Source of the DNA: Synergistota bacterium
GTDB taxonomy: Bacteria; Synergistota; GBS-1
NCBI GenBank assembly: GCA_025060595.1
Contig: JANXBX010000001.1
Span: 20,459-84,458, forward strand
DNA: 64,000 nucleotides
Direction of reading: 5' to 3'
A program made the position numbers and the translations under genes. Positions within the stretch are counted from its first letter, which is position 1. The number at the start of each line of letters is the position of its first letter. The notes below the pieces were generated by a model. That model had not been told where the DNA came from, did no database searches, and saw only the letters and a list, made by a program, of their open reading frames with translations. Shown one piece after another: positions 1 through 30,773 of the stretch.

Positions 1-918
1 AATAACATCAAGCGGGAAGTTAACCAATAAAAGCCTAAGCTCATTGGCTAAAAACGGACCTAAATCACCGTATTTCAGAAGTTCACTATCTAAGGAATTA
101 TTAACATCATAAAAGAGCCTTCCTACACCACCTGAAAACATGAAGCTATCAGCTTTTACCCCATCCCTCGGCAACTCACCTATAGCAGCCTTCGCAGCTA
201 TAGGATCAGATTCTCCTACAATAATATTTAAAAGCGCAGATGCTAGCCTTTTTGCTATACGCCTAATATCGAAGATAGATAAATAAATTCCTTGTTTTAT
301 TGATATTCCTAAATCTTCACATACAGCCCAACCTATCTCAGTCCAACTTACAACTTCCTGACTATACTCTTTAAACTTTATAACCCTGCTTCCTATATTT
401 GCACAAAAAGTACTTTTAAGCTTACCATTAACAAATATCGCCGCGTTTGTTGTCCCTCCACCTATATCAATATTACAAATCGTCTTATTCCTATCGCGAG
501 AAAAATGAGCTGCACCCGACCCAATCCCTGCAAGATAAGCCTCAAGATGTGGACCAGCGATAGCTACCACAAAAGTTCCAGCTAACGAAGACAAAGCCCG
601 TGCAACCATCTCCGCATTCTTCTTTTTCGCGGTTTCACCTGTTATAATAATAGCTCCCGTTCTTACTTCTTCCGCTTTCACAAGAGCTTTTTCATACTCA
701 CTCCGAACTATACCAACTAGCTTATCAAAATCTATAACATCAATATCAAGCAATGGAGTGAAATACACAGGGCTCCTGTAGATTATCTTTCTACCTATAA
801 TCTTGATCTTAGGAACTACAAACCCAGCTGCTATATTATCTATTTGTAGTCTACTAAGCACAAGAGAGGTTGTAGTTGTACCAATATCAATACCTACACT
901 CAATATTTCCTCAATCAC
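1..918 (-). CDS. EutA-like ASKHA-fold ATPase (ethanolamine ammonia-lyase reactivase family). N-terminal ~305 codons only; 3' end runs off the window.
   Basis: My minus-strand translation reads VIEEILSVGIDIGTTTTSLVLSRL..SPVYFTP..TGAIIITGETAKKKNAEMVARALSSLAGTFVVAIAGPHLEAYLAGIGSGAAHFSRDRNKTICNIDIGGGTTNAAIF. This closely parallels the E. coli EutA N-terminus as I recall it (LSVGIDIGTTTT, SPVFFTP, SGAIIITGESAKTRNA, FVVASAGPHLES, NIDIGGGTSN). GTG start at 918 with GGGAAAGG Shine-Dalgarno upstream. Not in the ORF track because it is partial. Confidence 0.6.
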   Translation of the reverse strand, partial: MIEEILSVGIDIGTTTTSLVLSRLQIDNIAAGFVVPKIKIIGRKIIYRSPVYFTPLLDIDVIDFDKLVGIVRSEYEKALVKAEEVRTGAIIITGETAKKKNAEMVARALSSLAGTFVVAIAGPHLEAYLAGIGSGAAHFSRDRNKTICNIDIGGGTTNAAIFVNGKLKSTFCANIGSRVIKFKEYSQEVVSWTEIGWAVCEDLGISIKQGIYLSIFDIRRIAKRLASALLNIIVGESDPIAAKAAIGELPRDGVKADSFMFSGGVGRLFYDVNNSLDSELLKYGDLGPFLANELRLLLVNFPLDVI

Positions 919-1234
919 AGTACCTTTCCCTTCATGCAGACACACTAATAGAGAGATTAATAACCACTCTTACACTAACCAGGAGGATTAATACTTCATT
1001 GCTCTAATACGGTCTTTTGAGGAAAATTAGAAGAGAATACTCACCCACTCCCCCACCTTATACACCAATTAGTAATTTTAGTATAACCTTAAAACTAGTT
1101 TTCTGTCAAGAGCCTTAATGCTAAAACTAAGCATTATTTTAAGTTATTACTATTCCTATTAAAGCCATTATTTTTAATACTCACTTAGAATACATTATTA
1201 AAACATAATTATTTCCACGGTCAATTCTTCCATA

Positions 1235-1243
1235 TGCTATAAT
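1235..1243 (+). promoter_or_regulatory. Extended -10 element TGcTATAAT for the plus-strand ADH/hydantoinase/deacetylase operon
   Basis: Sequence tgctataat lies about 40 nt upstream of the GGAGGTGA Shine-Dalgarno and the ATG at 1285. The region 992-1248 is a divergent intergenic region. Confidence 0.4.
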
Positions 1244-1284
1244 ACCTTTTGTGTAAAAGCTACTCATGGGAGGTGAACACTAAA

Positions 1285-2505
1285 ATGACAACTCCTTTCA
1301 ATTATATTTTTGGCTTTAGGGCTACACCTCTAAAGTTTGGTGTAGGAGCTACTGAACTACTAGGTAAAGAAGCCAAAAAACTAGGGGTTAAAAATGCGCT
1401 TATAATAGCAGATAACCTGGTATATGAGAAAACAGATGTCATTAAGAGAGCTATAGAATCCTTAGAAAAGGAAGAGATAAAGTATGATATATGGAAGGAG
1501 TTAAAGGGAGAACCAACTGAAGAAGATGTTGATAAAGCCTTAGATTATGTTAAAGGAAAGGACTTTGATGGATTCATTGGGATAGGCGGTGGAAGCGCTA
1601 TTGATCTAACAAAAATCGTAGATGCTTGCTATACTCACAAACCGCAAAGCTTTAAAGATTATCTTGCAAAACCATATGGAAAAGGAGAACCTATACCGGG
1701 ACCGATAAAACCCCTTATAGCCATTCCAACAACATCTGGAACAGGTAGCGAAACCACAAGAGCTGCTGTAATAATAGTTGAAAATGCTAAAGCTACAGCT
1801 TATGATGACTTTATAGCCCCAAAATTAGCTATAGTAGATCCATTAAATACAATAACGATGTCTCCAAAAGTCACTGCTGGTACAGGAATAGATGCTTTCA
1901 CTCATGCTTTAGAGGCCTACTTAGCAAAACCTACTCATCTTATACCCCCTGGCTCAATAGTCACTGGCTCTAACTTACTTGTGGACATCGTATCAGAAAA
2001 AGCAATAGAGCTCATAGGTAAAAGCTTAAGAGTAGCAACCTGGGATGGGAAAAACTTAGACGCAAGGAGCGATATGGCTTTAGCTGCTTATTTAGCAGGC
2101 ATTGCCTTTGATAGCGCAGGACTTCATGTTATACACTCTATCGGACAAGCAATAGGAGCAATAAAGGGTATATCCCACGGAATATCAGTAGGACTTTTCG
2201 CACCTGCCTTCCTGGAGGTTGTAGCTCCAATATGCCCAGAAAAGGTAGCAAAGGTAGCAGAACTTTTAGGTAAAAGGACAAGGGGGTTAGATAAGATTGA
2301 GGCCGCGATGTTAGCTTCCGAAGCTGTTAGAGAGTTACTTAGGGATATAGGTTTCCCAAACGGCCTCTCTGAGTTCGATATCAAAGAAAATGACATATCT
2401 AAATTTGTTGAAGAATCGGTTAGACGACCAAGGATAAACTCACCTATAGCGATAACACCTGAATTAGCAAAAAACATAATAACTAAATCGATAAAAATAT
2501 GGTAG
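1285..2505 (+). CDS. Iron-containing (group III) alcohol dehydrogenase family protein
   Basis: GGGSAIDLTK motif and the Fe-ADH fold along its length. I place the start at the ATG at 1285 (MTTPFNYIFGF), 8 nt downstream of GGGAGGTGA. The ORF-track start at 1249 has no Shine-Dalgarno. Confidence 0.8.
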   Translation: MTTPFNYIFGFRATPLKFGVGATELLGKEAKKLGVKNALIIADNLVYEKTDVIKRAIESLEKEEIKYDIWKELKGEPTEEDVDKALDYVKGKDFDGFIGIGGGSAIDLTKIVDACYTHKPQSFKDYLAKPYGKGEPIPGPIKPLIAIPTTSGTGSETTRAAVIIVENAKATAYDDFIAPKLAIVDPLNTITMSPKVTAGTGIDAFTHALEAYLAKPTHLIPPGSIVTGSNLLVDIVSEKAIELIGKSLRVATWDGKNLDARSDMALAAYLAGIAFDSAGLHVIHSIGQAIGAIKGISHGISVGLFAPAFLEVVAPICPEKVAKVAELLGKRTRGLDKIEAAMLASEAVRELLRDIGFPNGLSEFDIKENDISKFVEESVRRPRINSPIAITPELAKNIITKSIKIW

Positions 2506-4193
2506 AAAGGGAGAATAAAAGTTTAATATTAGGATTAGATGTAGGTGGAACTCACGTAGATGCAGTTGTACTAGAAGGGAAAAGGGTTATAGATAAGGTT
2601 AAGATACCTATAGAAAGCGATGACCTTTTTGAACCAATATGGACTGCCTTATTAAAACTTATAAAAGATAAGAAAGATTCTATTTCCCAAATAAACTTAA
2701 GCACTACAGTAGCAACAAATGCGATAGCTCAGGATAAACTTGAACCAGTAGGTATGATTATAGAAAGCGGACCAGGTGTTGATCTTTCACATCTAACAGT
2801 TAAAGGTGGAGTTTTCTTCATCTCAGGATATATAGATCACAGGGGGGTAGAAATAAAACCCTTTAACACTAACGAAATATTTCTTGCAAAAAATCTATTT
2901 AAAAGCAAAGGGATTAACCTTTGTGGAGTCGTAACCAAATTCTCCGTAAGAAATCCCTCTCACGAAATAAAAATATGGGAGCTACTCAAAAATGATTTTG
3001 AATTCATAAGCTTAGGACATAAACTTTCCGGAAAGCTCAATTTCCCAAGGAGAATTAATACAACATATTTGAATTCAGCAACCTATCCAAGCTTTAAACG
3101 CTTTTACAAGGGAATAATAGAAGCTCTAGAAAAGGAAAAAATAAAGACTCAGGTTAACATTCTTAAAGCTGATGGAGGAACGGTTGAGCTCGAAACCGCT
3201 AAAGACTACCCAGTTTATACAATTCTATCTGGACCAGCAGCAAGTATATTAGGAGCTTTAGCCTTAGGTGTACCTAAAGAGGATGGGATAATCATAGACA
3301 TAGGAGGCACGACCACAGATATAGCTTTTGTAATTCAGGGTATCCCAATGCTTGAACCCTTTGGCATAAAAATAGGAGATTACAATACCTTAGTAAGAGC
3401 CTTATATAGCTTCTCCATAGGTTTAGGAGGAGATAGCGCAATAAAGATTATTAAAGGAAAGTTAAAAATAGGACCGGAAAGGGAGGGATTTCCTAAAGCA
3501 TTGGGAGGCCCATCCCCCACACCAAGCGATGCTATGATAACTTTAGGGCTCCTAGATTTGGGAAATAAAGAGCAAGCTATAAAATCTATAAAAGATATAT
3601 CTATTATCCTGGGCTTAGATACAAAGTCATGTGCAGAACTTATACTAAAGGAAATGGTAGGATCGATTAAAAAGGCTGTTGAAAAAGCTTTAGATAGCAT
3701 AAATAATAAGCCAATTACTACAATCAAAGAGTTACTTTATGGTAAAAAGATTTCACCAAAATTTCTTTTCCTTATTGGAGGGCCAGCTAAAGCACTCGCA
3801 CCCTTTTTAAAAGAAGAATTCGGGGTTCCTTGTTATGTTCCAAAACTTTACGATGTAGCCAACGCCCTAGGAGCAGCACTTGCCAAGAAGACCTTCGAAA
3901 TCAATTTGTTCATCAACACAGCTGATGAAATTCTATCTGTTCCTGAACTTGGAATTTGCAAAAAGATAAATAAGAGCTTTACCTTTGAGGAAGCTCAAAA
4001 ACTTTCCTTAAGTCTCCTAAGAGAATGGGCTCTCTCGAAAGGTATGAGAGAGGAAGAATTTGAAAGTGAAATAATTGAAAGTACCAGTTTTAACATAGTA
4101 AGGGGGTTTTACACTTGTGGGAAAAACATAAGGATAAAAGCTCAAATAAAACCAGGTTTGCTTTTCAGTTTGGGAGAGATCGAAAATGCTTAA
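2499..4193 (+). CDS. Hydantoinase/oxoprolinase (HyuA-like) family ASKHA ATPase
   Basis: N-terminus LILGLDVGGTHVDAVVLEGK, TTVATNAIAQ, and a second phosphate loop IIIDIGGTTTDIAFV. Its start overlaps the upstream stop, so it is probably translationally coupled. Confidence 0.65.
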   Translation: MVERENKSLILGLDVGGTHVDAVVLEGKRVIDKVKIPIESDDLFEPIWTALLKLIKDKKDSISQINLSTTVATNAIAQDKLEPVGMIIESGPGVDLSHLTVKGGVFFISGYIDHRGVEIKPFNTNEIFLAKNLFKSKGINLCGVVTKFSVRNPSHEIKIWELLKNDFEFISLGHKLSGKLNFPRRINTTYLNSATYPSFKRFYKGIIEALEKEKIKTQVNILKADGGTVELETAKDYPVYTILSGPAASILGALALGVPKEDGIIIDIGGTTTDIAFVIQGIPMLEPFGIKIGDYNTLVRALYSFSIGLGGDSAIKIIKGKLKIGPEREGFPKALGGPSPTPSDAMITLGLLDLGNKEQAIKSIKDISIILGLDTKSCAELILKEMVGSIKKAVEKALDSINNKPITTIKELLYGKKISPKFLFLIGGPAKALAPFLKEEFGVPCYVPKLYDVANALGAALAKKTFEINLFINTADEILSVPELGICKKINKSFTFEEAQKLSLSLLREWALSKGMREEEFESEIIESTSFNIVRGFYTCGKNIRIKAQIKPGLLFSLGEIENA

Positions 4194-5496
4194 ATCTCAA
4201 AATAGATTAGCTTTGGTATTTTTCCCGGCCTTCGATTGGGCCATAACCCCAACGCATCCAGAAAGGGAAGAGAGACTTCTATATACATGGGATCAAATCC
4301 TCGAAGAAGGAATTCTCGACATTAACGGAATCGAAGTCTACAACCCAACAATTGCTACAGAGAAGGATATCCAAAGGGTCCATTTTTGCATACCAGATGT
4401 AAGATCAAGAGTTCCACAACCCCACCTGATATCTGCAGGAGGAGCTATAAAAGCAGCAGAATTGGTACTTAAGGGGGAAGCGGATAAAGCTTTTGCAATG
4501 GTAAGACCACCAGGTCATCACGCTCAAAGAGTGGTTTGGGGAGACAGGGGTTTTTGCATAATAAATATAGAAGCCGTTATGATAGAAAATATAAGACAGC
4601 GCTTCGGACATAAAAGAGTAGCTATTGTAGATACAGATTGTCATCATGGAGATGGAACCCAGGATATATATTGGAACGACAGAGATACTCTCTATATATC
4701 TATACACCAAGACGGAAGGACTCTTTATCCAGGAACAGGCTTTCCCGATGAACTTGGTGGACCAGCTGCGATAGGCTATAACATAAACATCCCTCTTCCG
4801 CCAGGAACCGGAGAGGAAGGATTCCTATATGTGCTAGATAATCTTATATTACCCATATTAGAAGAATATAAGCCCGACCTCGTTATAAATTCTGCAGGTC
4901 AGGACAATCACTACACCGATCCTATAACGAACATGAATTTCACAGCCCAAGGTTATGCAAAGCTTACTCAAAAACTCAATCCTGATATAGCCGTATTAGA
5001 AGGGGGTTACTCAATAGAGGGAGCCTTACCTTATGTAAATGTAGGTATAATACTTGCCTTAGCAGGCTTAAACTACTCTAACGTTGTAGAACCAGATTAT
5101 AATCCAGAAAAGCTAAGACAGTCTTCCAAAACCATGGACTATATTAAAAGGCTATGCGACAAAATTTATAATATTTGGAGAAACAGAGAAGTTATAAGAG
5201 ACGAAATGATAAAGGATCAAAAATATATACTGAGAAAGAGAAACGTTTATTATGATACTGATGGGATATTAGAGAAACAAACCCAAATATTTAAGATTTG
5301 CCCCGATTGCTCAGGAGTAAGTACTATAGAGTCAGAATCAGACTGGGGAGCAAAAATTTTTGCTGTAACAATTCCTCGGGATGCTTGTGAAAAGTGCTTT
5401 AATGAAGGCTACAGGCTTTTCGAAGAAATAGAAAAAGAAAAATATTACAGGGTTTATCTTCAAGACAAAGTTAACGATTTCTTCTCAAGTAAATGA
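4186..5496 (+). CDS. Histone-deacetylase/AcuC/acetylpolyamine-amidohydrolase family deacetylase with a C-terminal CxxC..CxxC zinc-ribbon extension
   Basis: Motifs RPPGHHA, DTDCHHGDGTQ and a GxGF-like segment (Zn-dependent deacetylase signature). C-terminal tail CPDCSGV...CEKC. Start overlaps the previous gene's stop. Confidence 0.75.
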   Translation: MLKSQNRLALVFFPAFDWAITPTHPEREERLLYTWDQILEEGILDINGIEVYNPTIATEKDIQRVHFCIPDVRSRVPQPHLISAGGAIKAAELVLKGEADKAFAMVRPPGHHAQRVVWGDRGFCIINIEAVMIENIRQRFGHKRVAIVDTDCHHGDGTQDIYWNDRDTLYISIHQDGRTLYPGTGFPDELGGPAAIGYNINIPLPPGTGEEGFLYVLDNLILPILEEYKPDLVINSAGQDNHYTDPITNMNFTAQGYAKLTQKLNPDIAVLEGGYSIEGALPYVNVGIILALAGLNYSNVVEPDYNPEKLRQSSKTMDYIKRLCDKIYNIWRNREVIRDEMIKDQKYILRKRNVYYDTDGILEKQTQIFKICPDCSGVSTIESESDWGAKIFAVTIPRDACEKCFNEGYRLFEEIEKEKYYRVYLQDKVNDFFSSK

Positions 5497-5498: not shown

Positions 5499-6779
5499 TT
5501 ATCTTATAAACCCCAATAATCTTGGTAAAAACATCGATATTGGTTCAAAGAAAGTCACTATAGCTAGGACAGCTATCTCAGCAATAACAAACTTATAAAC
5601 AGAGGCTGCTACCCTCTCTAATGATAATCCGGTTATTCCACAGCTAACGAAAAGACAAACTCCCACAGGCGGGGTAACCATTCCTATGGCAAGATTTAAA
5701 ACCATTATGAAACCAAAGTGAAGCGGATGAACTCCCATTTTAACAGCAATAGGAGCAAGTATTGGAGCTAGTATTATTATCGCAGCACCAGTTTCCATAA
5801 ACATTCCCACTATAAGTAAGAAGATATTTACTAGCAAAAGAAAAACATACTTATTTTGTGAAAGTGTTAAAAATATAGAAGCTATCCTTTGAGGGATCAA
5901 ATTAGCAGCTATAACCCAAGCAAAAACGTTAGCCATAGAAATTATTAAAAGTATAGAAGCAACCGTTACACCACTTTGAAATAAAACTTCTGGAATATCT
6001 TTCCATCTCAATTCTCTATATATAAACTTACCAACTACAAAAGAATATACTACAGCAACTGCTGCAGCTTCAGTAGGAGTGAAAGCACCAAAAAGTATTC
6101 CTCCAAGGATAATTAGCGGCGAAAGCAATGCCCAGAACGCTCCTTTAAATTCTTCCCATACTTTCCTTAAAGAAAAGGCTCCAACTATAGGATAATTCCT
6201 GGTCCTTGACTCAAGAAATATAACAACCATCATAGCCAAGCCAAGCATCACTCCAGGTATAAAACCTGCAGCAAAAAGCCCCCCTATAGAAACTCCTACA
6301 GAAACTCCGTATATAACCATTATTATGCTTGGAGGAATTATGGGACCTATAGTAGCTGCAGCTGCTGTTAAAGCAGCACTAAAATCCTTTTCATAACCGC
6401 TTTTTTCCATTGCAGGTATAAGAATAGATCCAATTGCCGATGCATCAGCAATAGCCGATCCGCTTATTCCAGCGAAAAACATATTAGCAACTACATTAGT
6501 ATGAGCAAGACCACCTTTTATATGTCCGACAAGACTATTAGCAAACCTTATTATTCTTAGCGTGGTACCACCGCGATTCATAAGCTCCCCCGCCAGGATA
6601 AAGAATGGAACAGCCATAAGAGGGAAAGAATCTATCCCCGTGAACATCCTTTGAGTAACAACTTGAAGAGGAACGCCCATTGCAAGTATACAGATAAATC
6701 CTGTTATTCCTAAAACAAAAGCTATGGGAACACCTAATAAAAAGGTAATCGCAAAGGCAAGAACCATAAGAGTTATCAT
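5499..6779 (-). CDS. dctM: TRAP transporter large permease, DctM family
   Basis: 426 aa, about 12 TM segments, typical DctM segments (GITGLSLERV, FMETGAAIIILAPIL). 4-nt overlap with the upstream dctQ. Confidence 0.85.
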   Translation of the reverse strand: MITLMVLAFAITFLLGVPIAFVLGITGFICILAMGVPLQVVTQRMFTGIDSFPLMAVPFFILAGELMNRGGTTLRIIRFANSLVGHIKGGLAHTNVVANMFFAGISGSAIADASAIGSILIPAMEKSGYEKDFSAALTAAAATIGPIIPPSIIMVIYGVSVGVSIGGLFAAGFIPGVMLGLAMMVVIFLESRTRNYPIVGAFSLRKVWEEFKGAFWALLSPLIILGGILFGAFTPTEAAAVAVVYSFVVGKFIYRELRWKDIPEVLFQSGVTVASILLIISMANVFAWVIAANLIPQRIASIFLTLSQNKYVFLLLVNIFLLIVGMFMETGAAIIILAPILAPIAVKMGVHPLHFGFIMVLNLAIGMVTPPVGVCLFVSCGITGLSLERVAASVYKFVIAEIAVLAIVTFFEPISMFLPRLLGFIR

Positions 6780-7300
6780 TTCCCTCTTTCCTCCTCTAAC
6801 TTCTTAAGTTCCACATTAGACGTAGAAAGAAGCCCAATAGAGCGAGAAAGCAGCATTTCTAAAAGATGAAGGAACATATAAAAACAACCAAAAGGAATAG
6901 CAAAATAAGGTATAACCATAGGCAATCCCATTGCAGGAGAAATCTGGTCTTTTAAGGTTAAGAGAAGGTTTATTCCTTGATAAACAAGTAAGAAAAGAAA
7001 AACAATAACAATGATCTCCGAAAAAATTATCAATGATTTTCTCAAGGATAACGGAACCTTGCTTATAAACATGGTAACTCCGATATGCCTTCCCTTTTTA
7101 ACAGCGATACCAGCTCCAAGATAGGTTACCCATACCATCATATACCTTGCTGCTTCTTCAGACCATGTTAAGGGACTATGGAGGATAAATCTAAATATAA
7201 CAGCTAAAAAGGTAACTATACTCATAAAGGCCATTAAAGCAACTAAGCCCCACATGGCAATAGAGTCAAAAATATTTAATAAGTACTTCACAAAAAACAT
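6776..7300 (-). CDS. dctQ: TRAP transporter small permease, DctQ family
   Basis: 174 aa, four predicted TM helices, sits between dctP and dctM. Confidence 0.7.
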   Translation of the reverse strand: MFFVKYLLNIFDSIAMWGLVALMAFMSIVTFLAVIFRFILHSPLTWSEEAARYMMVWVTYLGAGIAVKKGRHIGVTMFISKVPLSLRKSLIIFSEIIVIVFLFLLVYQGINLLLTLKDQISPAMGLPMVIPYFAIPFGCFYMFLHLLEMLLSRSIGLLSTSNVELKKLEEERGK

Positions 7301-7331
7301 CTTAAAATAAAGCCCCCTTTAAAAATTCATT

Positions 7332-7358
7332 GGGGGCAGACTAATTAATTCTGCCCCC
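7332..7358 (-). terminator. GC-rich hairpin (GGGGGCAGA / TCTGCCCCC) between dctP and dctQ. Candidate partial intrinsic terminator or attenuator.
   Basis: 9-bp perfect inverted repeat with a 9-nt loop, followed on the mRNA by a U-rich AAUGAAUUUUUAAA. A second GGGGGC at 7312-7317 can pair alternatively. Confidence 0.5.
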
Positions 7359-7380
7359 ACAAAAGTTAAGAAACTAAAGC

Positions 7381-8415
7381 TTACTTAACCATTTCCTTTT
7401 GCTTAGCTTCTGCCGCTTTAACCACCTCAATAATCTCGTTAACCCACTTCTCCCCTACTTCCTTCTTGACGTATTCTAATACAGCGGGTTGAGAGAGATT
7501 CCTAAACTGCTTTGCTTCCTCAGCATTGGGGACATAAACCTTCATACCCTGCTTTTGAAGATTTACCAAGCCAGTCTGAACCTGCCTCTCTGTTAAAGCT
7601 CTCTGAGCTATCTTAAAGAGCTGGGCTCCTTCATATATAATTAGCTTTTGCTCCTCAGTAAACTTATTCCAAACCTTATCGTTAACAAACATTATAAGCG
7701 GATTATACAGGTGCCCATCTAAAACAACATACTTGGAAACCTCATAGAATTTCATGTTATTGATCAATGTGATTGGACACTCAGCACCATCAACAACTCC
7801 CTGTTGCAAAGCCATATAAAGTTCACCAAAAGCTATAGGTGTAGGAGAAGCACCAAGTGCCTCAACTAATTTCATGTGAGCCGGATTTTCCATGGTTCTG
7901 ATCTTTAACCCTTTCATATCAGCAGGAGATTTTATCTCTTTCTTGATGGTAAAGAAATGCCTGTAACCATTTTCACTTATAGCAAGACAACGTATGCCGG
8001 TTGCTTTTAACATCTCACCCATAAGCTTCTGACCAAATGGACCATCCAATACCTCCCACGCTACATAAACATTCGGAAATAGATAAGGAATATCAAAAAC
8101 CATTATGGGCTTAAATAAGGTAGGAATGGGACCCGTAGTTATAGTACCAAATTCGATAGAACCGATTTTCAAACCTTCAAGTATCTCTTTCTCATTTCCA
8201 AGTTGGGAAGCATGAAAAGCATCAACTTTTATCTCCCCATTAGTTTTAGTGAAAACATAATTAGCAAAAATATCAACAGCTATAACTGTCCTATCCTCAG
8301 GATCTGCAGGCCCGGCATTCGCAAGCTTAAATTTTGTAAGAGCGAAAGAGCTCTCTGAAATAAACAAACCAAACAACACAAAAATTGCTATCAAGAAGCA
8401 GATTCTCCTCAACAT
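7381..8415 (-). CDS. dctP: TRAP transporter substrate-binding protein, DctP family
   Basis: 344 aa with a signal peptide (MLRRICFLIAIFVLFGLFISESSFA) and a DctP-type fold. Confidence 0.8.
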   Translation of the reverse strand: MLRRICFLIAIFVLFGLFISESSFALTKFKLANAGPADPEDRTVIAVDIFANYVFTKTNGEIKVDAFHASQLGNEKEILEGLKIGSIEFGTITTGPIPTLFKPIMVFDIPYLFPNVYVAWEVLDGPFGQKLMGEMLKATGIRCLAISENGYRHFFTIKKEIKSPADMKGLKIRTMENPAHMKLVEALGASPTPIAFGELYMALQQGVVDGAECPITLINNMKFYEVSKYVVLDGHLYNPLIMFVNDKVWNKFTEEQKLIIYEGAQLFKIAQRALTERQVQTGLVNLQKQGMKVYVPNAEEAKQFRNLSQPAVLEYVKKEVGEKWVNEIIEVVKAAEAKQKEMVK

Positions 8416-8505
8416 AAAGTTACACCCCCTCTCCTGAAAACTTTGTTCTTAAGAGGATTATATATCATCTTTTAAAGCTTATCCAGTCCTTAAAAAAAGA
8501 AAAAC

Positions 8506-9495
8506 TTATCTCTTCAAGAATCCCCTCTCGCTAGCTAATATTAAAACCTTTTTAATATCTACCACAAGAGGTCCTCTTCTCGTTACCTGAACTTCCCATT
8601 TCCCATCAGAAAACTCTATTTCCCTTTCTCCATCAAGCGCTATAACCCCTTTGTTAATACTAATAGGATACTTTTTCAAGAAAGCCACTTCAGAAAAACA
8701 CTCCACATATACTTCCTTAACCACACCTGGAACCAAAGGGGCAAAAAGTCTTCTTCCCTCTTTACCCAGCCTTACATAAACTCCTCTATCATCTATCTCA
8801 CTAGTAGGAATGAGGTAACCTCCTATAGAAGAAGCACCTATAGAGTCAGGTTTAGCTATCGTAGAGAAAATTTCTTTCATCTCTTCTGGATGCCATATAG
8901 CTCTTGAGCCTATAAAGGAACAATCAAGCGAAACCAAATCAATCAAAGCTATATCTCTTAACTCCCCCTCCTTAAAGAGTTCTACCCTTTTAGCTCTAAA
9001 ACATCCCTCTTCTTTTGAAACTACACCTTTAGCAATCGCAGCAGCAGCTAGCGCTGCAACAGTACCTTCTATCATATATGGAAAAACGTTATTGGTTCCG
9101 GTAGATATTGGAAGTAAAGGAAGCTCACTATCATGAGAAAGCCCCTTTGCAACTACCCTATTCGTACCATCTCCTCCAAGAGTTATCAAACAATCTACTC
9201 TTTCCCTTTCTAAAATGTGTGCGGCTTTTGTAGAATCATCCTGAGTAAACTCTACACTCATATCTATAATCTCAACCTTTAACCTCATTTTACCTAAGGC
9301 TTTCAAAGCCTTTAAGCCTATCTGAAAATAATCCGGCATAAATAAAACCTCTTTTATACCAACTTCATCAAAAATCGAAAGCATTCTTTTAACTATATTA
9401 ACTTTCTCATTATTATCAAAAACAGAACCATGAGCAACAAGCCTTCTTATATCCTTACCTGATGCTGGATTAGCTATTATCCCTATTCTCCCCAT
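8506..9495 (-). CDS. NAD-kinase-like / AcoX-like protein (GGDGT motif)
   Basis: ITLGGDGTNRVV motif and a kinase-like N-terminus GIIANPASGK. Positioned downstream of the E1 alpha/beta genes, as acoX is in acoXABC-type loci. Confidence 0.5.
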   Translation of the reverse strand: MGRIGIIANPASGKDIRRLVAHGSVFDNNEKVNIVKRMLSIFDEVGIKEVLFMPDYFQIGLKALKALGKMRLKVEIIDMSVEFTQDDSTKAAHILERERVDCLITLGGDGTNRVVAKGLSHDSELPLLPISTGTNNVFPYMIEGTVAALAAAAIAKGVVSKEEGCFRAKRVELFKEGELRDIALIDLVSLDCSFIGSRAIWHPEEMKEIFSTIAKPDSIGASSIGGYLIPTSEIDDRGVYVRLGKEGRRLFAPLVPGVVKEVYVECFSEVAFLKKYPISINKGVIALDGEREIEFSDGKWEVQVTRRGPLVVDIKKVLILASERGFLKR

Positions 9496-9559
9496 AAAAT
9501 ATCTTCCCCCTTTAAAAGAAACTGGGGCCCCTTTGGAAGGAGCCCCAGTAACTTAAGGC

Positions 9560-10540
9560 TTAAAGAATAGACTTTGCAGCCTTGATAATATCCTCAACCT
9601 GAGGTATGACAAACCTCTCAAGGGGTGGAGAAAAAGGTATAGGAACATTTTTACCACAAACTCTCTTAACAGGAGCATCAAGATATTCAAAGGCCTTCTC
9701 CATTATTATTGAAACTATCTCTCCACCAAAACCGTTTCTCTCAACAGCTTCATGAACGACAACAGCCCTATGAGTCTTTCTAACCGAAGCTAAAATTTTC
9801 TCCTCATCAAGAGGGTAAAGCGTTCTAGGATCAACTACCTCAACAGAAAAACCATCCTTCTCAAGAATAGATGCAGCATCTAAAGCTTTATGAACCATCA
9901 AAGATGTAGCTATTATAGTAAGATCCTTACCTTCTCTCTTTATATCTGCAACACCTAGCGGTATTATATACTCTTCCTCTGGAACAGGACCTTTAAAACC
10001 GTAAAGCATCTTATGCTCCAAAAATACAACAGGGTTGTCGTCTCTTATAGAAGCCTTAAGCAAACCTTTAGCATCGTAAGGGGTTGATGGCATTACAACC
10101 TTAAGACCAGGAAGATGAGTAAACCAAGCTTCAAGACTTTGAGAATGCTGAGCCGCAGCAGAAAGCCCTCCTCCCACAGGAGTTCTAATAACCATGGGAA
10201 GTTTAACCTTTCCTCCAAACATATATCTCATCTTAGCTGCTTGATTAGTTATCTCGTCCATTGCTACACCCATGAAATCACAGAACATTATTTCTGCTAC
10301 AGGTCTCATACCTGTGGCAGCAGCCCCAACAGCAGAACCAATTATAGCTGTTTCACTTATAGGTGTATCTCTGACCCTATCATCTCCGAACTCTTCCCAA
10401 AGCCCTTTTGTAACTCCAAAGCAACCACCAAATCTTCCGACATCTTCACCACATATATATACCTTATCATCACGCTTCATTTCCTCCCTTAAAGCTTCCC
10501 TTATCGCTTCCGCATATGTAATCTCTCTCATTCCAAGCAC
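9560..10540 (-). CDS. TPP-dependent 2-oxoacid/acetoin dehydrogenase E1 component beta subunit
   Basis: Transketolase-like pyrimidine-binding and C-terminal domains (ICGEDVG, FGGEIV). The true start is probably MREITY, a few codons inside the ORF-track start. Confidence 0.9.
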
Positions 10541-10543
10541 CCC

Positions 10544-11500
10544 CTAAGCATAAACATCCTCAAGAGCCTCTTCAGGCTCAGGATAGGGGCTATTTTCCGC
10601 AAACCTCACGGCTTCTTCAACTTCCCTAGCTATCATCTCCTCTATATCTCTTATCTTAGCTTCACTCAATATCCCCGCTTTAATAAGCCTCTCTTGAAAA
10701 CGCCTTATTGGACATTTTTTCTTCCATTCCTCTATTTCGTCTTGTGTTCTATAAGTTTGAGGATCCCCCTCAAAGTGTCCCCTCCAACGAGCTGTTTTAG
10801 CCTCTATCAATGTCGGACCCCCACCAGAGCGAGCTTTATTCACTGCCTCCTTAACTGCTTCGTAGACAGCTATAACATCGTTCCCATCTATAACAATCCC
10901 AGGCATACCGTAAGCCGAAGCTCTATCTGCCACATCATCGATCGCCATCCCCTTTCGCTGAGGCATCGATATGCCATACATATTATTCTCGCATAGAAAT
11001 ATAACAGGTAGCTTCCATATAGAGGCCATGTTTAAGCTTTCATGGAAAGTACCTCTATTTGATGCACCATCGCTAAAGAAACATAAAGCAACTCTTCCGT
11101 TCTTTTGTAAATAACTTGATAAGGCTGCACCCGTTGCTATTGGCAAACCAGCACCAACTATCCCATTAGCTCCGAGTATGCCCAGATCTACATCAGCTAT
11201 ATGCATAGATCCTCCTTTACCCTTACAATAGCCGGTCTTTTTACCGTAAAGCTCAGCCATCATATATTTAAGATCTCCGCCTTTAGCTATTAGATGCCCA
11301 TGTCCTCTGTGAGTACTAGTTATATAATCAGTGGGTTCTAAAGCTGAGCAAGCCCCAACAGCTACTGCCTCTTCACCTATGTAAGAGTGAACAAAACCCG
11401 GTATCTTACCTTGAGCAAAAAGCTCCACAACTTTTTCTTCGAACCGTCTTATCCTTAACATAGAAATATACATGTTAATCCACAGTTTTTCCTCACCCAA
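10544..11500 (-). CDS. TPP-dependent 2-oxoacid/acetoin dehydrogenase E1 component alpha subunit
   Basis: TPP-binding region GKGGSMH..GIVGAGLPIATGAA..SDGASNRGTFHESLN. Confidence 0.9.
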   Translation of the reverse strand: MGEEKLWINMYISMLRIRRFEEKVVELFAQGKIPGFVHSYIGEEAVAVGACSALEPTDYITSTHRGHGHLIAKGGDLKYMMAELYGKKTGYCKGKGGSMHIADVDLGILGANGIVGAGLPIATGAALSSYLQKNGRVALCFFSDGASNRGTFHESLNMASIWKLPVIFLCENNMYGISMPQRKGMAIDDVADRASAYGMPGIVIDGNDVIAVYEAVKEAVNKARSGGGPTLIEAKTARWRGHFEGDPQTYRTQDEIEEWKKKCPIRRFQERLIKAGILSEAKIRDIEEMIAREVEEAVRFAENSPYPEPEEALEDVYA

Positions 11501-11522
11501 GGTTCTCCCCTCCTAACTAAGA

Positions 11523-11882
11523 CTACCCGGGAACTTTGACAATTACACAAGCATTAACGACAACAATTTCTGAAGTCTCCCCAAACTTAGGAACATAAAT
11601 CCCGGGCACCTTAAGCCCTCCCTTTTCTAACCTTAACTCCACTTTACCTATGGGAATAGCTTTCTTTATTTCTTCCTCTTCTACCTCGCCTCCCTCAGGA
11701 ATACCAAGTATAACTTCTACAAGAACATCCTCGAGAGGAACGTTCAAAATTTCAATTAAACCACATAAACAAACGCGAGAAATAGCATCTTTAATAGCTT
11801 TTACGCTTGCATTAGTGTAATCTCCTCCATGGAGATCCAACCCCATACCAAACTCGATAACAAATCTTTTATAGTTATTCAT
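11523..11882 (-). CDS. Conserved hypothetical protein (possibly Lin0512-like family)
   Basis: 119 aa with motif GMGLDLHGGDYTNASVKAIKDAI. Overlaps the upstream small gene by 4 nt. Confidence 0.4.
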   Translation of the reverse strand: MNNYKRFVIEFGMGLDLHGGDYTNASVKAIKDAISRVCLCGLIEILNVPLEDVLVEVILGIPEGGEVEEEEIKKAIPIGKVELRLEKGGLKVPGIYVPKFGETSEIVVVNACVIVKVPG

Positions 11883-12184
11883 AGGAAAAACTCATCTCCA
11901 CTCTTTCCGCCAAGCCCAGGATGAAGATCGAATCTAACAACTCCCACACGAGCTTTTCTCTTAACAGCTTTAGCCACCATACTAACACCTTCGTTGCCAA
12001 AGCCACCGCAAAGCTCTATACAAGATATTCCCTCTCTCACTAAATCCACTGCAATTTGAGCACCTTCTTCGTAGCTTCTAACGCCAACCACATGAAGTTC
12101 GACCTCTCCGCTTTTAACCACGGTTCTATCTTTCCGAGAGTCTGCCTGAGGAGCTATAAAAATAAAAGCAGCCCTCAAAGCCAA
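11879..12184 (-). CDS. Conserved hypothetical protein
   Basis: 101 aa, operonic with the previous gene; no recognisable family. Confidence 0.35.
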   Translation of the reverse strand: MALRAAFIFIAPQADSRKDRTVVKSGEVELHVVGVRSYEEGAQIAVDLVREGISCIELCGGFGNEGVSMVAKAVKRKARVGVVRFDLHPGLGGKSGDEFFL

Positions 12185-12207
12185 TATAAGATCACCTCCT
12201 AAACAAC

Positions 12208-13008
12208 TTATATATATGCTGCCTTTATCATACCTCCATCCACATTAATGGCTTGACCTGTTATGTAGCTTGCTTTTTCCGAAGCCAGGAACAAAACCAC
12301 ATTAGCTATCTCCTCAGGATAACCATAACGACCTAGCGGAATATTTCCTTTAGCAAAAGCTTCTATAGCCTCAGCAGAAGATAACCCTAACATTTTACCT
12401 AACTGGTCACCAAGCTGTCCTGGCCCTTCCCATAAAGGAGTTCTCACCGGTCCTGGACAAACAGCATTAACGAGTATCCCATACTTAGCCAAATAATTAG
12501 CAAAATCTTTGGTCACCATGATCACGGCAGCCTTAGCAGTATCATAATCCAGCAATCCACCTGGCTGCTTACCAAATATAGAAGAAATGTTGATAATCCT
12601 TCCCCATTTATTCTCACGCATATAAGGAACCACCGCCCTACTTAAGCGTACAACAGCGTATACCATTAAATCCATATTGAAGAAGAACTGCTCCTCAGGA
12701 AGCTCCATAAGATCGCTAAAGCGCGCAGTTCCAGCATTGTTAACTAAGATATCTATACGACCAAACCTTTTAACCGTTTCTTTTACAAATTTATCTATAT
12801 CCTCCTTCTTAGTTACGTCAGCTCGAACAGCCAAAACTTCAACACCCTTCTTCTTAAGCTCATCAGCAGTCATATACAACCTTTCCTCGTTTATATCGCA
12901 CAAGGACAATTTACAACCTTCATCGGCAAACGCTACAGCACAAGCCTTACCTATCCCCTGAGCCGCCCCAGTAATCATAACGACCTTATTTCTTATACCC
13001 AAATCCAT
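12208..13008 (-). CDS. Short-chain dehydrogenase/reductase (SDR) family oxidoreductase
   Basis: Rossmann motif VMITGAAQGIGKA and a catalytic YxxxK-type region. I place the start at the internal MDLGIRNK, with GGGGGTGAAAGG Shine-Dalgarno 4-8 nt upstream, rather than the ORF-track 13053. Confidence 0.8.
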   Translation of the reverse strand: MDLGIRNKVVMITGAAQGIGKACAVAFADEGCKLSLCDINEERLYMTADELKKKGVEVLAVRADVTKKEDIDKFVKETVKRFGRIDILVNNAGTARFSDLMELPEEQFFFNMDLMVYAVVRLSRAVVPYMRENKWGRIINISSIFGKQPGGLLDYDTAKAAVIMVTKDFANYLAKYGILVNAVCPGPVRTPLWEGPGQLGDQLGKMLGLSSAEAIEAFAKGNIPLGRYGYPEEIANVVLFLASEKASYITGQAINVDGGMIKAAYI

Positions 13009-13134
13009 CCTTTCACCCCCTATAGAAATAATCTCTATAAGATAATATAGCATTAAGGTTTACCTATTCAAGTTCGAAAACATACTTTAAAGCAACCATT
13101 TACCTATATTCTCATAATTTTCTTTCAAATATTT

Positions 13135-14683: not shown

Positions 14684-15133
14684 CTGAAGAGAATACTCCT
14701 TGGTGTGGGTAATGAACTTCTAGGGGACGATGGTGTAGGCCCTTGGATAGCTAAAAGAATAAATGGAATAAGAGGATGGATAGGGTTAGATGTGGGAACA
14801 GCTCCTGAGAACTTTACTTCCCTCATAAGAAGAGAAAAGCCCTCTCTTCTTGTAATAATCGATGCCACAGAAATGAATTTACTACCTGGAGAAATAAGAA
14901 TGATACCATTAGAGAAAATCCCAAAGTTAACGTACTTTTCAACCCATACACTATCTCTCTCTTTTCTAATAGAAAGCTTAAAAGGTGATGTCAAAAATAT
15001 CCTTTTTATAGGAGTGCAACCCAAGGCTATAGCCTTGGGTTGCACATTATCAGAAGAAGTATTAACTTCAGCTAAAAGGCTTCTTAACTTACTTATATCT
15101 AACAAATTCCTTGAAGAACTCACTTCACTATGA
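14684..15133 (+). CDS. hycI: [NiFe]-hydrogenase maturation endopeptidase (HycI/HybD family)
   Basis: Motif (K)RILLGVGNELLGDDGVG. The conserved N-terminus lies upstream of the first GTG (14705). AGGGAGGG Shine-Dalgarno sits 6 nt before a CTG at 14684. The antisense ORF 14662-15123 is spurious. Confidence 0.7.
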   Translation: MKRILLGVGNELLGDDGVGPWIAKRINGIRGWIGLDVGTAPENFTSLIRREKPSLLVIIDATEMNLLPGEIRMIPLEKIPKLTYFSTHTLSLSFLIESLKGDVKNILFIGVQPKAIALGCTLSEEVLTSAKRLLNLLISNKFLEELTSL

Positions 15134-15539: not shown

Positions 15540-16526
15540 TTAAACTAACTTGTCACAAACCATCAGCAACAAACCAACCATGCTTGTTAAAAGCAAGGGA
15601 AACCAATATAGAGATGCTATCTGGTCAACCTTTAGTCTGGCAAACGCAACCCTAACCAAGGTTACAGAAAAAGTAAGTAAAACTAAAACCTTAATCCAGA
15701 AAAAGAGAAAATCCAAAATATAAGCACCCATTCCTGAGATTCCTAAAATAGAAGAGAGGTTCCATGGAAAAAACAAGTTAACAATTAAAGCGGTCATTCC
15801 TATAGTTTTAACACCATCAGCTATATAAAATAGAGCGTAATTCTTACCAGAGTACTCAACCATCACTCCTTCAGCTATCTCAGTTTCAGCTTCAGCAATA
15901 TCAAATGGAATCTTCCCAAGCTCTGCTGGAGTAACAACAAGTATAGCTATTAGTATCAAAAGAGCGCCAAACACACCTAAAACTCCCAAATTAGACCAAA
16001 TTGGTTTAAGTACATAAGTATATAGTGAAAAGGAAGGGAGATCCGGAAAGGTTTTCGAATAATACCAAGCTAAAGCTATAATAGCAGTAGCTAATGGGAA
16101 TTCATAACTCATCAAAAGAACCATTTCTCTTTGGGCTCCTACTGTAGCAAAGGGAGATCCCGATGCAAAGCCACCAGCAACGATTGCTATAGCAGCAACT
16201 GTAAAAATGTATATAATTAAAATTATATCTCCTCTATCTCCCAAAAGCGGTGGTAAGCTTCCCATCGGTTGATAGAAGAAAAGGCTAATCGAGGCAAGCA
16301 AGGCTAACCAAGGAGCTCCGTTAAATATCCAAGGGACAGCATTTTCTGGAACGATGTTTTCCTTTTGTAAAAGCTTTATAACATCATAGAAGGGCTGAAT
16401 TATAGGCGGTCCAAATCTAGCCTGCAACCTAGCAGCTATTTTCCTATCTATACCTTTGTAAAGGAGCCCCACAAACATAACAAAAATAGAAAGAAAAATG
16501 GTAAGAAGAATCTTTAAGGCTAACAT
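15540..16526 (-). CDS. Mbh subunit M-like membrane subunit (NuoH/HycD family)
   Basis: 328-aa polytopic membrane protein; NuoH-like. Confidence 0.8.
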   Translation of the reverse strand: MLALKILLTIFLSIFVMFVGLLYKGIDRKIAARLQARFGPPIIQPFYDVIKLLQKENIVPENAVPWIFNGAPWLALLASISLFFYQPMGSLPPLLGDRGDIILIIYIFTVAAIAIVAGGFASGSPFATVGAQREMVLLMSYEFPLATAIIALAWYYSKTFPDLPSFSLYTYVLKPIWSNLGVLGVFGALLILIAILVVTPAELGKIPFDIAEAETEIAEGVMVEYSGKNYALFYIADGVKTIGMTALIVNLFFPWNLSSILGISGMGAYILDFLFFWIKVLVLLTFSVTLVRVAFARLKVDQIASLYWFPLLLTSMVGLLLMVCDKLV

Positions 16527-17755
16527 TTTTTCCTCATCCTCCTTGTTTTTTCAACGCTCATCTTATGCAACTCTTCATGAGTCAGTATCTCTTTTCTACC
16601 GGAAGGATAAACAACCGTAACTCTATTGAGACAAGACATACAGGGATCAGTTGAAGCCACTATTATAGGAATATCAGCCACTTCAGCATCTTTAAACATC
16701 GGAACCCACGGTAGCAAGTTGTTATACGTCGGGGCCCTTATTTTCCAAACCGCTAGATTTTCACTACCAGCGACTATCTTAACATAGTGAACATCTTCAC
16801 CTCTTGGTCCTTCGTGCCTACCTACTCCTTCCCCTTCTCCTTTCTTTATGAGATTAAGAAGCTTAACAAGATTCTTTTCATAAACTATGTCTCCTTCAGG
16901 CATCATGGTTAACGCTTTATCTATAAGATCTATAGACTGATCTATCTCAAGAAGACGAACCACAGTTTTATCGTAAACATCTCCTACAATCTCACCTGTA
17001 TATATGTCTGGAGTTATAGCTTTAACACCAATATCTGCATAAGCAATATAAGGCTGATCTTGACGAATATCCTTGGGCACGCCTGAAGCCCTCAAAGTTG
17101 GTCCTACAGCACAAAGAGAAAGAGCGTCTTCCTTACTAAGTATACCTACATTTCTTGTCCTCATCATGAAAGTAGGATCCTCAAGAAGTAAGACCTTTAT
17201 TCTCTCCGAAAGAGTCCTATAGTAATCCAGCGATTTCCATATTTCACGACGGAGCTCCTCATTTATGTCCCTTCTAACGCCCCCTATTTGAACTATAGCA
17301 TAGTTAACCCTATTCCCAGTGATTTTTTCCAACAGATCCATAACGTTCTCCCTGATCTTCCACAATAACATAAACGCAGAATCAAATCCGACTTCATGCG
17401 CTGCAACGCCAGCCCACAATATATGAGAGTGAATTCTCTCAAGCTCAGCCACAATCAATCTTATATACTGAGCTCTCGGGGGAACCTCTATATTAAGAGC
17501 TTTCTCAACAGCAAAAGCCAAAGCCAAAGCATGCGTAACGGAACATATACCACAGATTCGCTCGGAAATATAAAGGCACTGTATAGGATTCCTTCTTGTT
17601 CCTATCCACTCTATACCACGATGAGCGTGTCCAGCGTATATCTTTACGTCTTTAACTCTTTCCCCCTCTATTTCAAAATGAAACTCTATAGGCTCTTTTA
17701 GGGCAGGATGAATCGGCCCTACTGGAACACTATACCCATAGCTTACTTTTCCCAT
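16520..17755 (-). CDS. Membrane-bound [NiFe] hydrogenase large (catalytic) subunit, Mbh/Ech group 4 (NuoD-like)
   Basis: N-terminal RICGICSVTH and C-terminal DPCMSCLNR Ni-Fe ligand pairs are both retained; NuoD-like core. Confidence 0.9.
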   Translation of the reverse strand: MGKVSYGYSVPVGPIHPALKEPIEFHFEIEGERVKDVKIYAGHAHRGIEWIGTRRNPIQCLYISERICGICSVTHALALAFAVEKALNIEVPPRAQYIRLIVAELERIHSHILWAGVAAHEVGFDSAFMLLWKIRENVMDLLEKITGNRVNYAIVQIGGVRRDINEELRREIWKSLDYYRTLSERIKVLLLEDPTFMMRTRNVGILSKEDALSLCAVGPTLRASGVPKDIRQDQPYIAYADIGVKAITPDIYTGEIVGDVYDKTVVRLLEIDQSIDLIDKALTMMPEGDIVYEKNLVKLLNLIKKGEGEGVGRHEGPRGEDVHYVKIVAGSENLAVWKIRAPTYNNLLPWVPMFKDAEVADIPIIVASTDPCMSCLNRVTVVYPSGRKEILTHEELHKMSVEKTRRMRKKC

Positions 17756-17769
17756 ACTTTATAGTCACC

Positions 17770-18291: not shown

Positions 18292-18293
18292 CT

Positions 18294-18737: not shown

Positions 18738-18747
18738 TCAACCCTCC

Positions 18748-19083: not shown

Positions 19084-19085
19084 TA

Positions 19086-20645: not shown

Positions 20646-20651
20646 CTTCCA

Positions 20652-21750: not shown

Positions 21751-21753
21751 TTT

Positions 21754-21996: not shown

Positions 21997-21999
21997 CTT

Positions 22000-22356: not shown

Positions 22357-22358
22357 AT

Positions 22359-26658: not shown

Positions 26659-26669
26659 AGCACACCTCC

Positions 26670-28713: not shown

Positions 28714-28776
28714 CTCCCAACCTTAAGCCAAATAAACCCTTAGTATTATACCCTTACAACCCTAACTTTTCAATCT

Positions 28777-30754: not shown

Positions 30755-30773
30755 TTTTTTTTCGCCTCGCTTT

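Follow-up and report, generated by a model that had tools for sequence, protein, structure and literature searches.

A short HyuA-type ATPase and an HDAC-fold zinc deacetylase form a strictly conserved gene pair in mostly anaerobic bacteria

ATPases of the HyuA type belong to the hydantoinase A / oxoprolinase family and have an ASKHA fold. All structurally characterised full-length relatives work with a HyuB-type metal subunit, and for caprolactamase a tunnel was proposed that hands the ATP-activated intermediate to this subunit (PMC8453981). In the HyuA/HyuB enzymes, namely CapAB, N-methylhydantoinase, 5-oxoprolinase and the acetone and acetophenone carboxylases, the ATPase gene adjoins that of the metal-dependent partner and is translationally coupled to it. 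Bacterial zinc-dependent deacylases of the HDAC/arginase fold include the HdaH/class IIb-type enzymes of cluster 1 (P. aeruginosa PA3774, K. pneumoniae HdaH, A. baumannii Kdac1; PMC11532494) and the acetylpolyamine amidohydrolases (ApaH) of cluster 4. Here we analysed a 64,000-nucleotide stretch of a Synergistota genome (contig JANXBX010000001.1, positions 20,459 to 84,458; "the window"), in which a short HyuA-type ATPase is encoded directly in front of a class-II-like deacetylase of the HDAC fold. As in the HyuA/HyuB enzymes, the two genes are adjacent and translationally coupled, and the ATPase shares their domains, their fold and their nucleotide-binding motifs. However, its partner is an HDAC/arginase-fold zinc enzyme, and the ATPase itself is about 130 aa shorter.

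The pair was compared across two sets of loci. A scan with the deacetylase against one genome per species gave at least 566 related stretches, and the best 80 loci, at 60-75% identity, were studied; about 490 of the species matches fall below 60%. The HyuA-family alignment was scanned against metagenomes and gave a further 80 loci; in both sets together (160 loci) the HDAC identity is 58-83%. The HyuA-like gene lies directly 5' of the deacetylase gene and on the same strand in 78 of the 78 testable genome loci, the other two of the 80 ending at a contig edge. When the search started from the ATPase, the deacetylase gene was found directly 3' in 78 of 78 testable metagenome loci (77 direct cases and locus L139, where the deacetylase begins at the very end of the contig). 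Whichever gene served as the query, all 156 testable loci, drawn from many phyla, thus have the two genes side by side on one strand. With alignment-anchored starts, the stop of the first gene overlaps the start of the second in 117 of the 160 loci (73%), and the gap is at most 20 nt in 30 more. The pairwise divergences of the two proteins correlate with r = 0.94 (139 complete pairs).

Full-length relatives of the deacetylase keep 60-83% identity across phyla, with about 70% in Thermoanaerobacter, Caldanaerobacter, Tepidanaerobacter, Defluviitoga (Thermotogota), Tissierellia and others. The 80 genome loci span Bacillota, Desulfobacterota and Syntrophia, Spirochaetota, Kiritimatiellae, Bacteroidales, Riflebacteria, Acholeplasmataceae and a few Gammaproteobacteria. 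In Defluviitoga and Caldanaerobacter the deacetylase is accompanied by the HyuA-like gene but not by the other two genes of the segment. We conclude that the short HyuA-type ATPase and the zinc deacetylase are a strictly conserved, co-inherited and self-contained module, spread over hundreds of bacterial species, most of them anaerobic. Literature searches, which covered sources outside subscription journals, retrieved no paper on the pair. One metagenomic protein of 286 aa (P0262) joins the N-terminal half of a HyuA-like protein to the C-terminal domain of the deacetylase, by a deletion between the genes or as an assembly artefact.

No third partner recurs next to the pair. ORF clustering of the 80 genome loci gave no third recurrent gene, and when the two closest genes on either side were scanned with Pfam, about 145 different families per side came up. 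The commonest neighbours, EpmA, RlmN, MurB and MatE, are all restricted to particular lineages: RlmN lies 3' of the pair in 6 Syntrophobacter-type loci, MurB 5' of it in 10 Tepidanaerobacter-type loci, and a convergent MATE gene beside it in 7-14 loci. Most contexts are of the housekeeping kind, for example murB...rapZ, rlmN with his genes, or epmA, and no transporter or regulator is recurrent among the neighbours. GNAT- and CBS-type neighbours are absent from the window annotation and from the 25 commonest families per side of the 80 loci. EpmA/GenX, which passed its curated cut-off, is encoded directly 3' of the deacetylase in 10 Desulfobacterales loci (L061, L064, L065, L067, L069, L070, L072, L074, L076 and L082; e.g. 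L070:6095-7012), with 4-nt overlaps in five of them; neither efp nor epmB was found within 8 kb of these loci. The adjacency may reflect a link to lysine or translation, or clade synteny only. In a metagenome-assembled genome (MAG) of Lachnospiraceae (L028:2594-9305) the genes for E1 alpha, E1 beta, a lipoyl E2 and a small nucleotidyltransferase precede the pair on the same strand. We considered a link to acetoin or 2-oxoacid dehydrogenase genes and rejected it, as E1 alpha/beta genes occur near the pair only in the lineage of the window and in L028; the context in L028 is probably a coincidence, since it is the sole other locus of the 160 with 2-oxoacid dehydrogenase genes.

The ATPase has the full HyuA fold. 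Its AlphaFold2 (AF2) model, built from a shallow alignment, has a mean predicted local distance difference test score (pLDDT) of 89.7, and the best Foldseek matches are acetone carboxylase beta (query TM-score, TMq, 0.76), N-methylhydantoinase, acetophenone carboxylase and caprolactamase alpha, although the identity to solved HyuA subunits is 16-20%. The P1 (DxGGTxTD), P2 (DxGGT) and adenosine motifs have been defined for CapA (PMC8453981). In the window's protein they read DVGGTHVD, DIGGTTTD and IGGP, and in the family DVGGTxxD, DxGGTTTD and IGGP. The invariant residues are G16, G17, T18 and D21, then D267, G269, G270, T271, T272 and D274, and finally I426, G427, G428 and P429. Among NCBIfam models, there were weak matches to MfnF and to a tetrahydromethanopterin (H4MPT)-linked protein.

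What is missing is HyuB. The ATPase protein has no HyuB domain, and tblastn with two canonical HyuB queries gave no match (E <= 1e-3) in the window and 166 loci (1.97 Mb). The queries were taken from annotated plasmid operons; as a control, they are 32% identical to each other and match mutually at E 1e-57. Outside its own family the ATPase is closest to the short HyuA proteins associated with DUF917 (full-length alignment, hhalign E 3.7e-45 over 483 columns, 32% identity), and tblastn ranks the DUF917-type short HyuA (E 1e-46) ahead of canonical HyuA (E 1e-27). Such modules of DUF917 (Pfam S-Me-THD_N/C) and a short HyuA of 513-527 aa, likewise without HyuB, are present on plasmids, for example of Parageobacillus (pNCI001), Planococcus and Rhizobium (L167:4904-7557, L167:987-3497, L168:4890-7569 and L170:3995-7725). 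They sit with an NCS1 'cytosine permease' or an ABC transporter. DUF917 and these modules are themselves uncharacterised, and two DUF917 queries gave no tblastn match in the window and the same 166 loci. The modules on plasmids carry transporters and regulators and look catabolic, whereas the pair described here has none. We also asked if DUF917 could be a remote homologue of the deacetylase, and rejected this, as the hhalign probability was 0.4% and the two are unrelated. Short HyuA ATPases therefore occur with at least two unrelated partners other than HyuB.

The second protein has the complete catalytic set of the HDAC fold. In alignments of 41 and 75 sequences the H111-H112 dyad, the zinc ligands D151, H153 and D240, the tyrosine Y275 in EGGY (E272-Y275) and G122-F-C124 are invariant, and so is R107-P-P-G-H-H112. 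The fold and all these elements are shared with the HdaH-type deacylases, and RPPGHH and EGGY also with the acetylpolyamine amidohydrolases. By their motifs, both the ATPase and the zinc hydrolase appear catalytically intact. According to published motif rules, a protein with RPPGHH and EGGY counts as a 'robust deacetylase' whose foot pocket is small, like the enzymes of clusters 1 and 4, while in AcuC (cluster 2c) GGGLHH and (G/A)GGY replace RPPxHH and xGGY (Graf et al. 2024, PMC11532494). The label 'AcuC-like', which an earlier note on this DNA had given to the protein, is thus a misnomer: the family invariably has RPPGHH and EGGY and not GGGLHH and GGGY, and the context contains no acuA, acuB or acsA. 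After the third zinc ligand the protein has PIT (P246-I-T248) where acetylpolyamine amidohydrolases have PIS, which is a hint only; by sequence the protein scores lower against ApaH structures (E 1e-26 to 1e-39) than against HdaH.

Best sequence matches of the deacetylase are HDAC6 and bacterial HdaH, and the nearest solved structures are PA3774, DmhA, Kdac1 and KpHdaH, at 26-31% identity and a TMq of about 0.63, which is no higher because no PDB match covers the C-terminal domain. Compared with an HDAC6 alignment, the family has invariant stretches of its own around the canonical motifs (GDRGFC, HQDGRT and SAGQDNHY). Its N-terminus is about 30 aa shorter than in HdaH-type enzymes, which have neither the four-cysteine domain of about 95 aa nor the obligatory pairing with an ATPase. 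Judged by sequence, the deacetylase is a clade separate from the HdaH-type cluster 1, because the identity is just 26-31% and a C-terminal domain is added. The survey of bacterial deacylases with its supplements mentions neither a hydantoinase partner nor these taxa (PMC11532494). The AF2 model of the deacetylase (pLDDT 87.5, predicted TM-score 0.90) also rests on a shallow alignment. The stretches with a pLDDT under 50 coincide with the invariant loops 15-21, 24-29, 179-182 and 274-277, the catalytic tyrosine included; the cause could be the shallow alignment, or else a conformation dependent on the metal or the partner.

The C-terminal domain was modelled confidently as beta-hairpins and a helix. 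The earlier note had pointed to an unusual CxxC..CxxC extension, and all four cysteines indeed proved invariant in the 41 and 75 members: C372 (5299-5301), C375 (5308-5310), C401 (5386-5388) and C404 (5395-5397). We presume that the domain is a zinc ribbon. A phmmer search with it against 1.84 billion representative proteins gave 129 matches. The 19 inspected belong to the same family, as full-length proteins or as fragments, except for two apparent chimeras (P0262 and P0310), and the match positions of the remaining ones fit the same pattern. Since the matches fall within one family, the domain appears to be private to these deacetylases. Matches of about 145 aa were considered as stand-alone or otherwise fused copies of the domain and rejected; they are 5'-truncated gene calls that start from a conserved internal methionine.

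The positions of the features are collected in Table 1. The presence of an EutA-like reading frame at the left edge of the window on the minus strand and of the iron-containing alcohol dehydrogenase (Fe-ADH), HyuA-like and HDAC-family genes on the plus strand, as stated in the earlier note, was borne out by Pfam. The overlapping stops and starts of the plus-strand genes can also be read directly in the sequence: the Fe-ADH stop TAG (2503-2505) overlaps the HyuA-like gene, whose ATG is at 2499, the overlap between the HyuA-like and deacetylase genes is 8 nt, and the Shine-Dalgarno sequence of the deacetylase lies about 9 nt 5' of its ATG. Both ASKHA ATPases that were said to flank the other two genes are there, but the wording was loose, as the order is eutA (minus) and then Fe-ADH, HyuA-like and HDAC-like (plus). 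In the intergenic region between eutA and Fe-ADH a single strong match of the sigma-70 type lies at 1109-1080 on the minus strand (TTGACA-18-TATACT), and the total count of promoter-like sites in it is no higher than the shuffled expectation. Scans of the window found no Rfam family at the gathering threshold and no tRNA.

Table 1. Features at the left end of the window, with the evidence for each.
Feature	Position	Strand	Evidence or remark
eutA, 5' part, 306 of 478 codons	1..918	minus	cut by the left edge of the window; Pfam EutA E 2e-97
Divergent intergenic region eutA / Fe-ADH, 366 nt	919..1284	none	sequence
Fe-ADH family protein, 406 aa	1285..2505	plus	Pfam Fe-ADH and ADH_Fe_C; ATG start as in the GenBank call
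Short HyuA-type ASKHA ATPase (hydantoinase A / oxoprolinase family), 564 aa	2499..4193	plus	Pfam Hydant_A_N E 8e-30, Hydantoinase_A E 1e-45
Coupling junction HyuA/HDAC	4171..4193	plus	Shine-Dalgarno GGGAGAG, HDAC ATG 4186, HyuA stop TAA 4191-4193
Class-II-like Zn-dependent deacetylase, HDAC/arginase fold, 436 aa	4186..5496	plus	Pfam Hist_deacetyl E 3.5e-68
Four-Cys C-terminal alpha/beta domain of the deacetylase, presumed Zn ribbon	5203..5493 (aa ~340-436)	plus	invariant Cys

The two genes in front of the pair do not belong to the conserved module. The earlier note had reasoned that no ethanolamine ammonia-lyase is nearby and that the EutA-like protein is therefore unlikely to be a reactivase of a B12 enzyme. 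Both statements failed once the sequence was followed beyond the edge. Contig JAOAII010000002.1 (263 kb) of the Synergistota MAG GCA_026414785.1 carries the region of the window in reverse complement. Past eutA and on its strand, which is the minus strand in terms of the window, it continues with eutB, eutC, two bacterial microcompartment (BMC) genes and an acetylating acetaldehyde dehydrogenase gene. The ammonia-lyase genes begin about 0.5 kb beyond the window edge, directly after eutA, and the same order is found on the related Synergistota contig L086. Curated NCBIfam cut-offs were passed by EutB (696 versus 554 bits), EutC (289 versus 230) and the acetylating acetaldehyde dehydrogenase (640 versus 620). 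Residues 1-476 of the full-length EutA (478 aa) align with NF007992 at 430 bits, below the strict cut-off of this model (598 bits). With the eutB/eutC operon continuing past the edge and eutA absent from all other loci of the pair (0 of 160), eutA is most simply read as an ordinary reactivase of ethanolamine ammonia-lyase, the first gene of a canonical eut operon and outside the conserved module. Nothing in this operon is unusual; it has eutA, eutB, eutC, the BMC shell genes and the acetylating acetaldehyde dehydrogenase gene in the canonical order, and only the 5' two-thirds of eutA lie within the window.

The Fe-ADH scored below every NCBIfam equivalog cut-off, including that of EutG (161.6 versus 556 bits), and this score together with its nearest relatives rules out an EutG-type ethanol dehydrogenase. 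Relatives at 82-84% identity are restricted to the same Synergistota lineage. Outside it, a Thermococcus protein comes nearest (53%), and next, at about 40%, are archaeal proteins named hydroxyacid-oxoacid transhydrogenase by their sources; the gene was possibly acquired from archaea by inter-domain transfer, as its sequence relationships suggest. A single other locus of the 160 has an Fe-ADH near the pair; it is 30% identical, lies 2.4 kb off and is encoded on the other strand. None of the 80 metagenome loci contains Fe-ADH, EutA, TRAP or E1 genes. Co-transcribed here, the Fe-ADH gene was added to the operon in this lineage only and is no partner of the conserved pair. The segment holds three independent units, namely eutA as the start of the eut operon, the lineage-specific Fe-ADH and the two-gene ATPase-deacetylase module.

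The pair probably acts on an amide. We propose that it is a two-subunit ATP-coupled amidohydrolase in which an HDAC-fold zinc subunit has taken the place of HyuB, and we give this reading a probability of about 0.4. The HyuA-like and HDAC-like proteins would form a stoichiometric complex, in which the ATPase subunit would spend ATP on the activation of a carbonyl or amide oxygen, as in the known HyuA/HyuB enzymes. The activated intermediate would then be passed to the metal site of the partner, where the HDAC-fold zinc site (D151/H153/D240, H111/H112 and Y275) would act as HyuB does. Given the RPPGHH/EGGY signature, the substrate may carry a small, acetyl-sized acyl group on an aminoalkyl chain. 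The absence of a linked transporter or regulator and the frequent housekeeping neighbourhoods would fit a role in salvage or metabolite repair and not in a catabolic pathway. The strongest form of this proposal, that an HDAC-fold zinc hydrolase has replaced HyuB and made the first ATP-coupled member of the HDAC superfamily, and with it a new two-subunit class of amide-processing enzymes, hydrolytic or synthetic and widespread in anaerobic bacteria, is put forward tentatively. The target of such an enzyme would probably be a ubiquitous metabolite or protein modification.

The exchange of partners has a precedent, which supports the proposal, since the nearest relatives of the ATPase are paired with DUF917 and not with HyuB. 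Several points weigh against it. The N-deacetylation of a linear amide is exergonic and requires no ATP. A lysine or polyamine suits the narrow tunnel of HDACs and the 'robust deacetylase' motifs better than a lactam would, and the nearest characterised relatives of the deacetylase are stand-alone lysine deacetylases. None of the 160 loci has an in-frame fusion of both genes. HyuB may lie elsewhere in the genomes, as the search covered 6-10 kb per side, and the pairing counts cover the closest 160 loci only (HDAC 58-83% identity). What the data show are the gene identities, the pairing with its coupling, the intact motifs and the lack of HyuB nearby, while the formation of a complex, the coupling of ATP to the amidohydrolase step and the class of the substrate are inferred.

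Because simple N-deacetylation needs no ATP, the leading rival is a conventional lysine or polyamine deacetylase whose ATPase stands outside the chemistry and gates, recruits or assists the enzyme, while the zinc ribbon docks a conserved macromolecule, possibly the translation apparatus. We consider this possible, if doubtful. The nearest relatives by sequence and structure (HDAC6, HdaH and Kdac1) are bona fide lysine deacetylases, the RPPGHH/EGGY signature goes together with a PIT that resembles the PIS of the dual lysine/polyamine ApaH, and a conservation of 60-75% across phyla is typical of proteins that touch conserved macromolecules. Zinc ribbons, moreover, frequently bind proteins or nucleic acids. 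Weak hints to translation come from EpmA, co-operonic in 10 loci of Desulfobacterales, and from RlmN in 6 loci of the Syntrophobacter type, but each of these links is confined to a single clade and neither efp nor epmB is nearby. In such an arrangement the ATPase could be an energy-state sensor, as AcuB is for AcuA and AcuC, or an Hsp70-like presenter of the substrate. The AcuABC system of Bacilli offers an analogy, as there too a zinc deacetylase is encoded with a nucleotide-binding partner (PMC13121692). That partner is a CBS/ACT protein, whereas here it is an ASKHA ATPase; the deacetylase motifs differ as described above, and genes of the AcuA/AcuB type are not found nearby. The ATPase, however, keeps the complete catalytic HyuA architecture with invariant phosphate motifs and is not a reduced sensor domain, and the strict 1:1 translational coupling resembles an enzyme complex more than a regulator. 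To our knowledge, no HyuA-family protein acts on or with proteins.

The two proteins could also be separate enzymes that perform consecutive steps on one small molecule and form no complex; for example, an N-acetylated amine would be deacetylated, with an ATP-dependent phosphorylation, ring opening or ring closure before or after this step. Strict co-occurrence and co-inheritance would be equally expected then, the lack of fusions would be natural, and proteins of the Hydantoinase_A family do include stand-alone small-molecule enzymes, to which the weak MfnF and H4MPT-linked matches may be added. We still regard it as unlikely, since the structurally characterised full-length HyuA relatives need a partner subunit (PMC8453981), no transporter, regulator or further pathway enzyme is linked to the pair, and the overlap of stop and start in 73% of the loci favours stoichiometric co-production. 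The interpretation of the whole segment as one four-gene catabolic cluster for an N-acetylated or amide substrate, with a non-reactivase role for the EutA-like protein, was the one suggested by the earlier note. The tight packing of the three plus-strand genes divergently from eutA, here and in a close relative, speaks for it. What survived of it is that the HyuA-like and deacetylase genes belong together (156 of 156); the comparison of neighbourhoods over 160 loci did not find all four genes co-conserved, with EutA missing from 160 and Fe-ADH from 159 of the other loci. This outcome and the eut operon past the edge are the two that the note had itself named as refuting it. As eutA is followed by eutB, eutC, BMC and acetylating aldehyde dehydrogenase genes and the close relatives of the Fe-ADH are confined to this lineage, we judge a single cluster to be very improbable. 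Slightly less credible still is a cargo of mobile elements or an anti-phage defence system. In Defluviitoga and Caldanaerobacter (L002-L005) the neighbours are restriction-modification enzymes, Cas genes, a resolvase and a phospholipase D (PLD) nuclease, but the pair gave no match to PADLOC models, no family member was found on viral contigs or on PLSDB plasmids (where the matches are generic class II HDACs only), the contexts are mostly of the housekeeping kind, and the conservation is far above that usual for defence genes.

Further gene groups lie elsewhere in the window. A TRAP-transporter gene converges on the deacetylase gene, whose end is 2 nt away from the transporter stop. The transporter gene belongs to a minus-strand operon at 5499-13053 that encodes TRAP DctM/Q/P, an NAD-kinase/diacylglycerol kinase (DAGK)-like protein (AcoX-like), thiamine pyrophosphate (TPP)-dependent E1 beta and E1 alpha, a Lin0512-family protein, DUF6506 and a short-chain dehydrogenase/reductase (SDR). 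The E1 genes have no adjacent E2 or E3. The order of the operon is repeated on the related contig L086, and the gene combination is uncharacterised. The minus-strand genes at 15540-23128 code for a NiFe hydrogenase that is membrane-bound and has modules resembling Mrp antiporters (NuoH-like, NiFe large subunit, 30-kDa subunit, antiporter M, MnhB and MnhE), and a HycI-like hydrogenase maturation protease is encoded near 14705-15133 on the plus strand. Among the few plus-strand genes is one at 24233-24946 for a protoglobin-MCP (methyl-accepting chemotaxis protein) signalling fusion of 237 aa, of the globin-coupled sensor type. The region 25726-34573 (minus) has genes for subunits of a 2-oxoacid:ferredoxin oxidoreductase, a histidine phosphatase, a LarA-type lactate racemase, an FAD-linked oxidase with EtfA/EtfB and a GntR/FCD regulator. 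It looks like a lactate-utilisation cluster of the electron-bifurcating type.

Classical deacylases of the HDAC family are regarded as stand-alone and independent of energy, and HyuA ATPases as obligate partners of HyuB. The pair breaks both rules: a HyuA-type ATPase has a novel partner, and an HDAC-family enzyme has an ATPase as its obligate companion and a presumed zinc-ribbon domain of its own, an apparently undescribed combination. For these genes the annotations 'AcuC / acetoin utilisation' and 'hydantoinase/oxoprolinase' are uninformative. The hosts are fermenters, syntrophs, sulfate reducers, acetogens and Thermotogota, and the module is directly testable because cultivable organisms carry it, among them Thermoanaerobacter kivui, Caldanaerobacter subterraneus, Defluviitoga tunisiensis and species of Moorella and Neomoorella. 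Among the complete genomes that have the pair are those of D. tunisiensis (LN824141.1), T. kivui, Thermoanaerobacter sp. RKWS2 and Neomoorella carbonis (CP136420). Together with their DUF917-associated relatives, short HyuA ATPases may be modular activating subunits that join unrelated second subunits. The pair would imply either that an HDAC scaffold carries out amide chemistry driven by ATP, or that anaerobes control deacetylation through ATP in a way not recognised so far.

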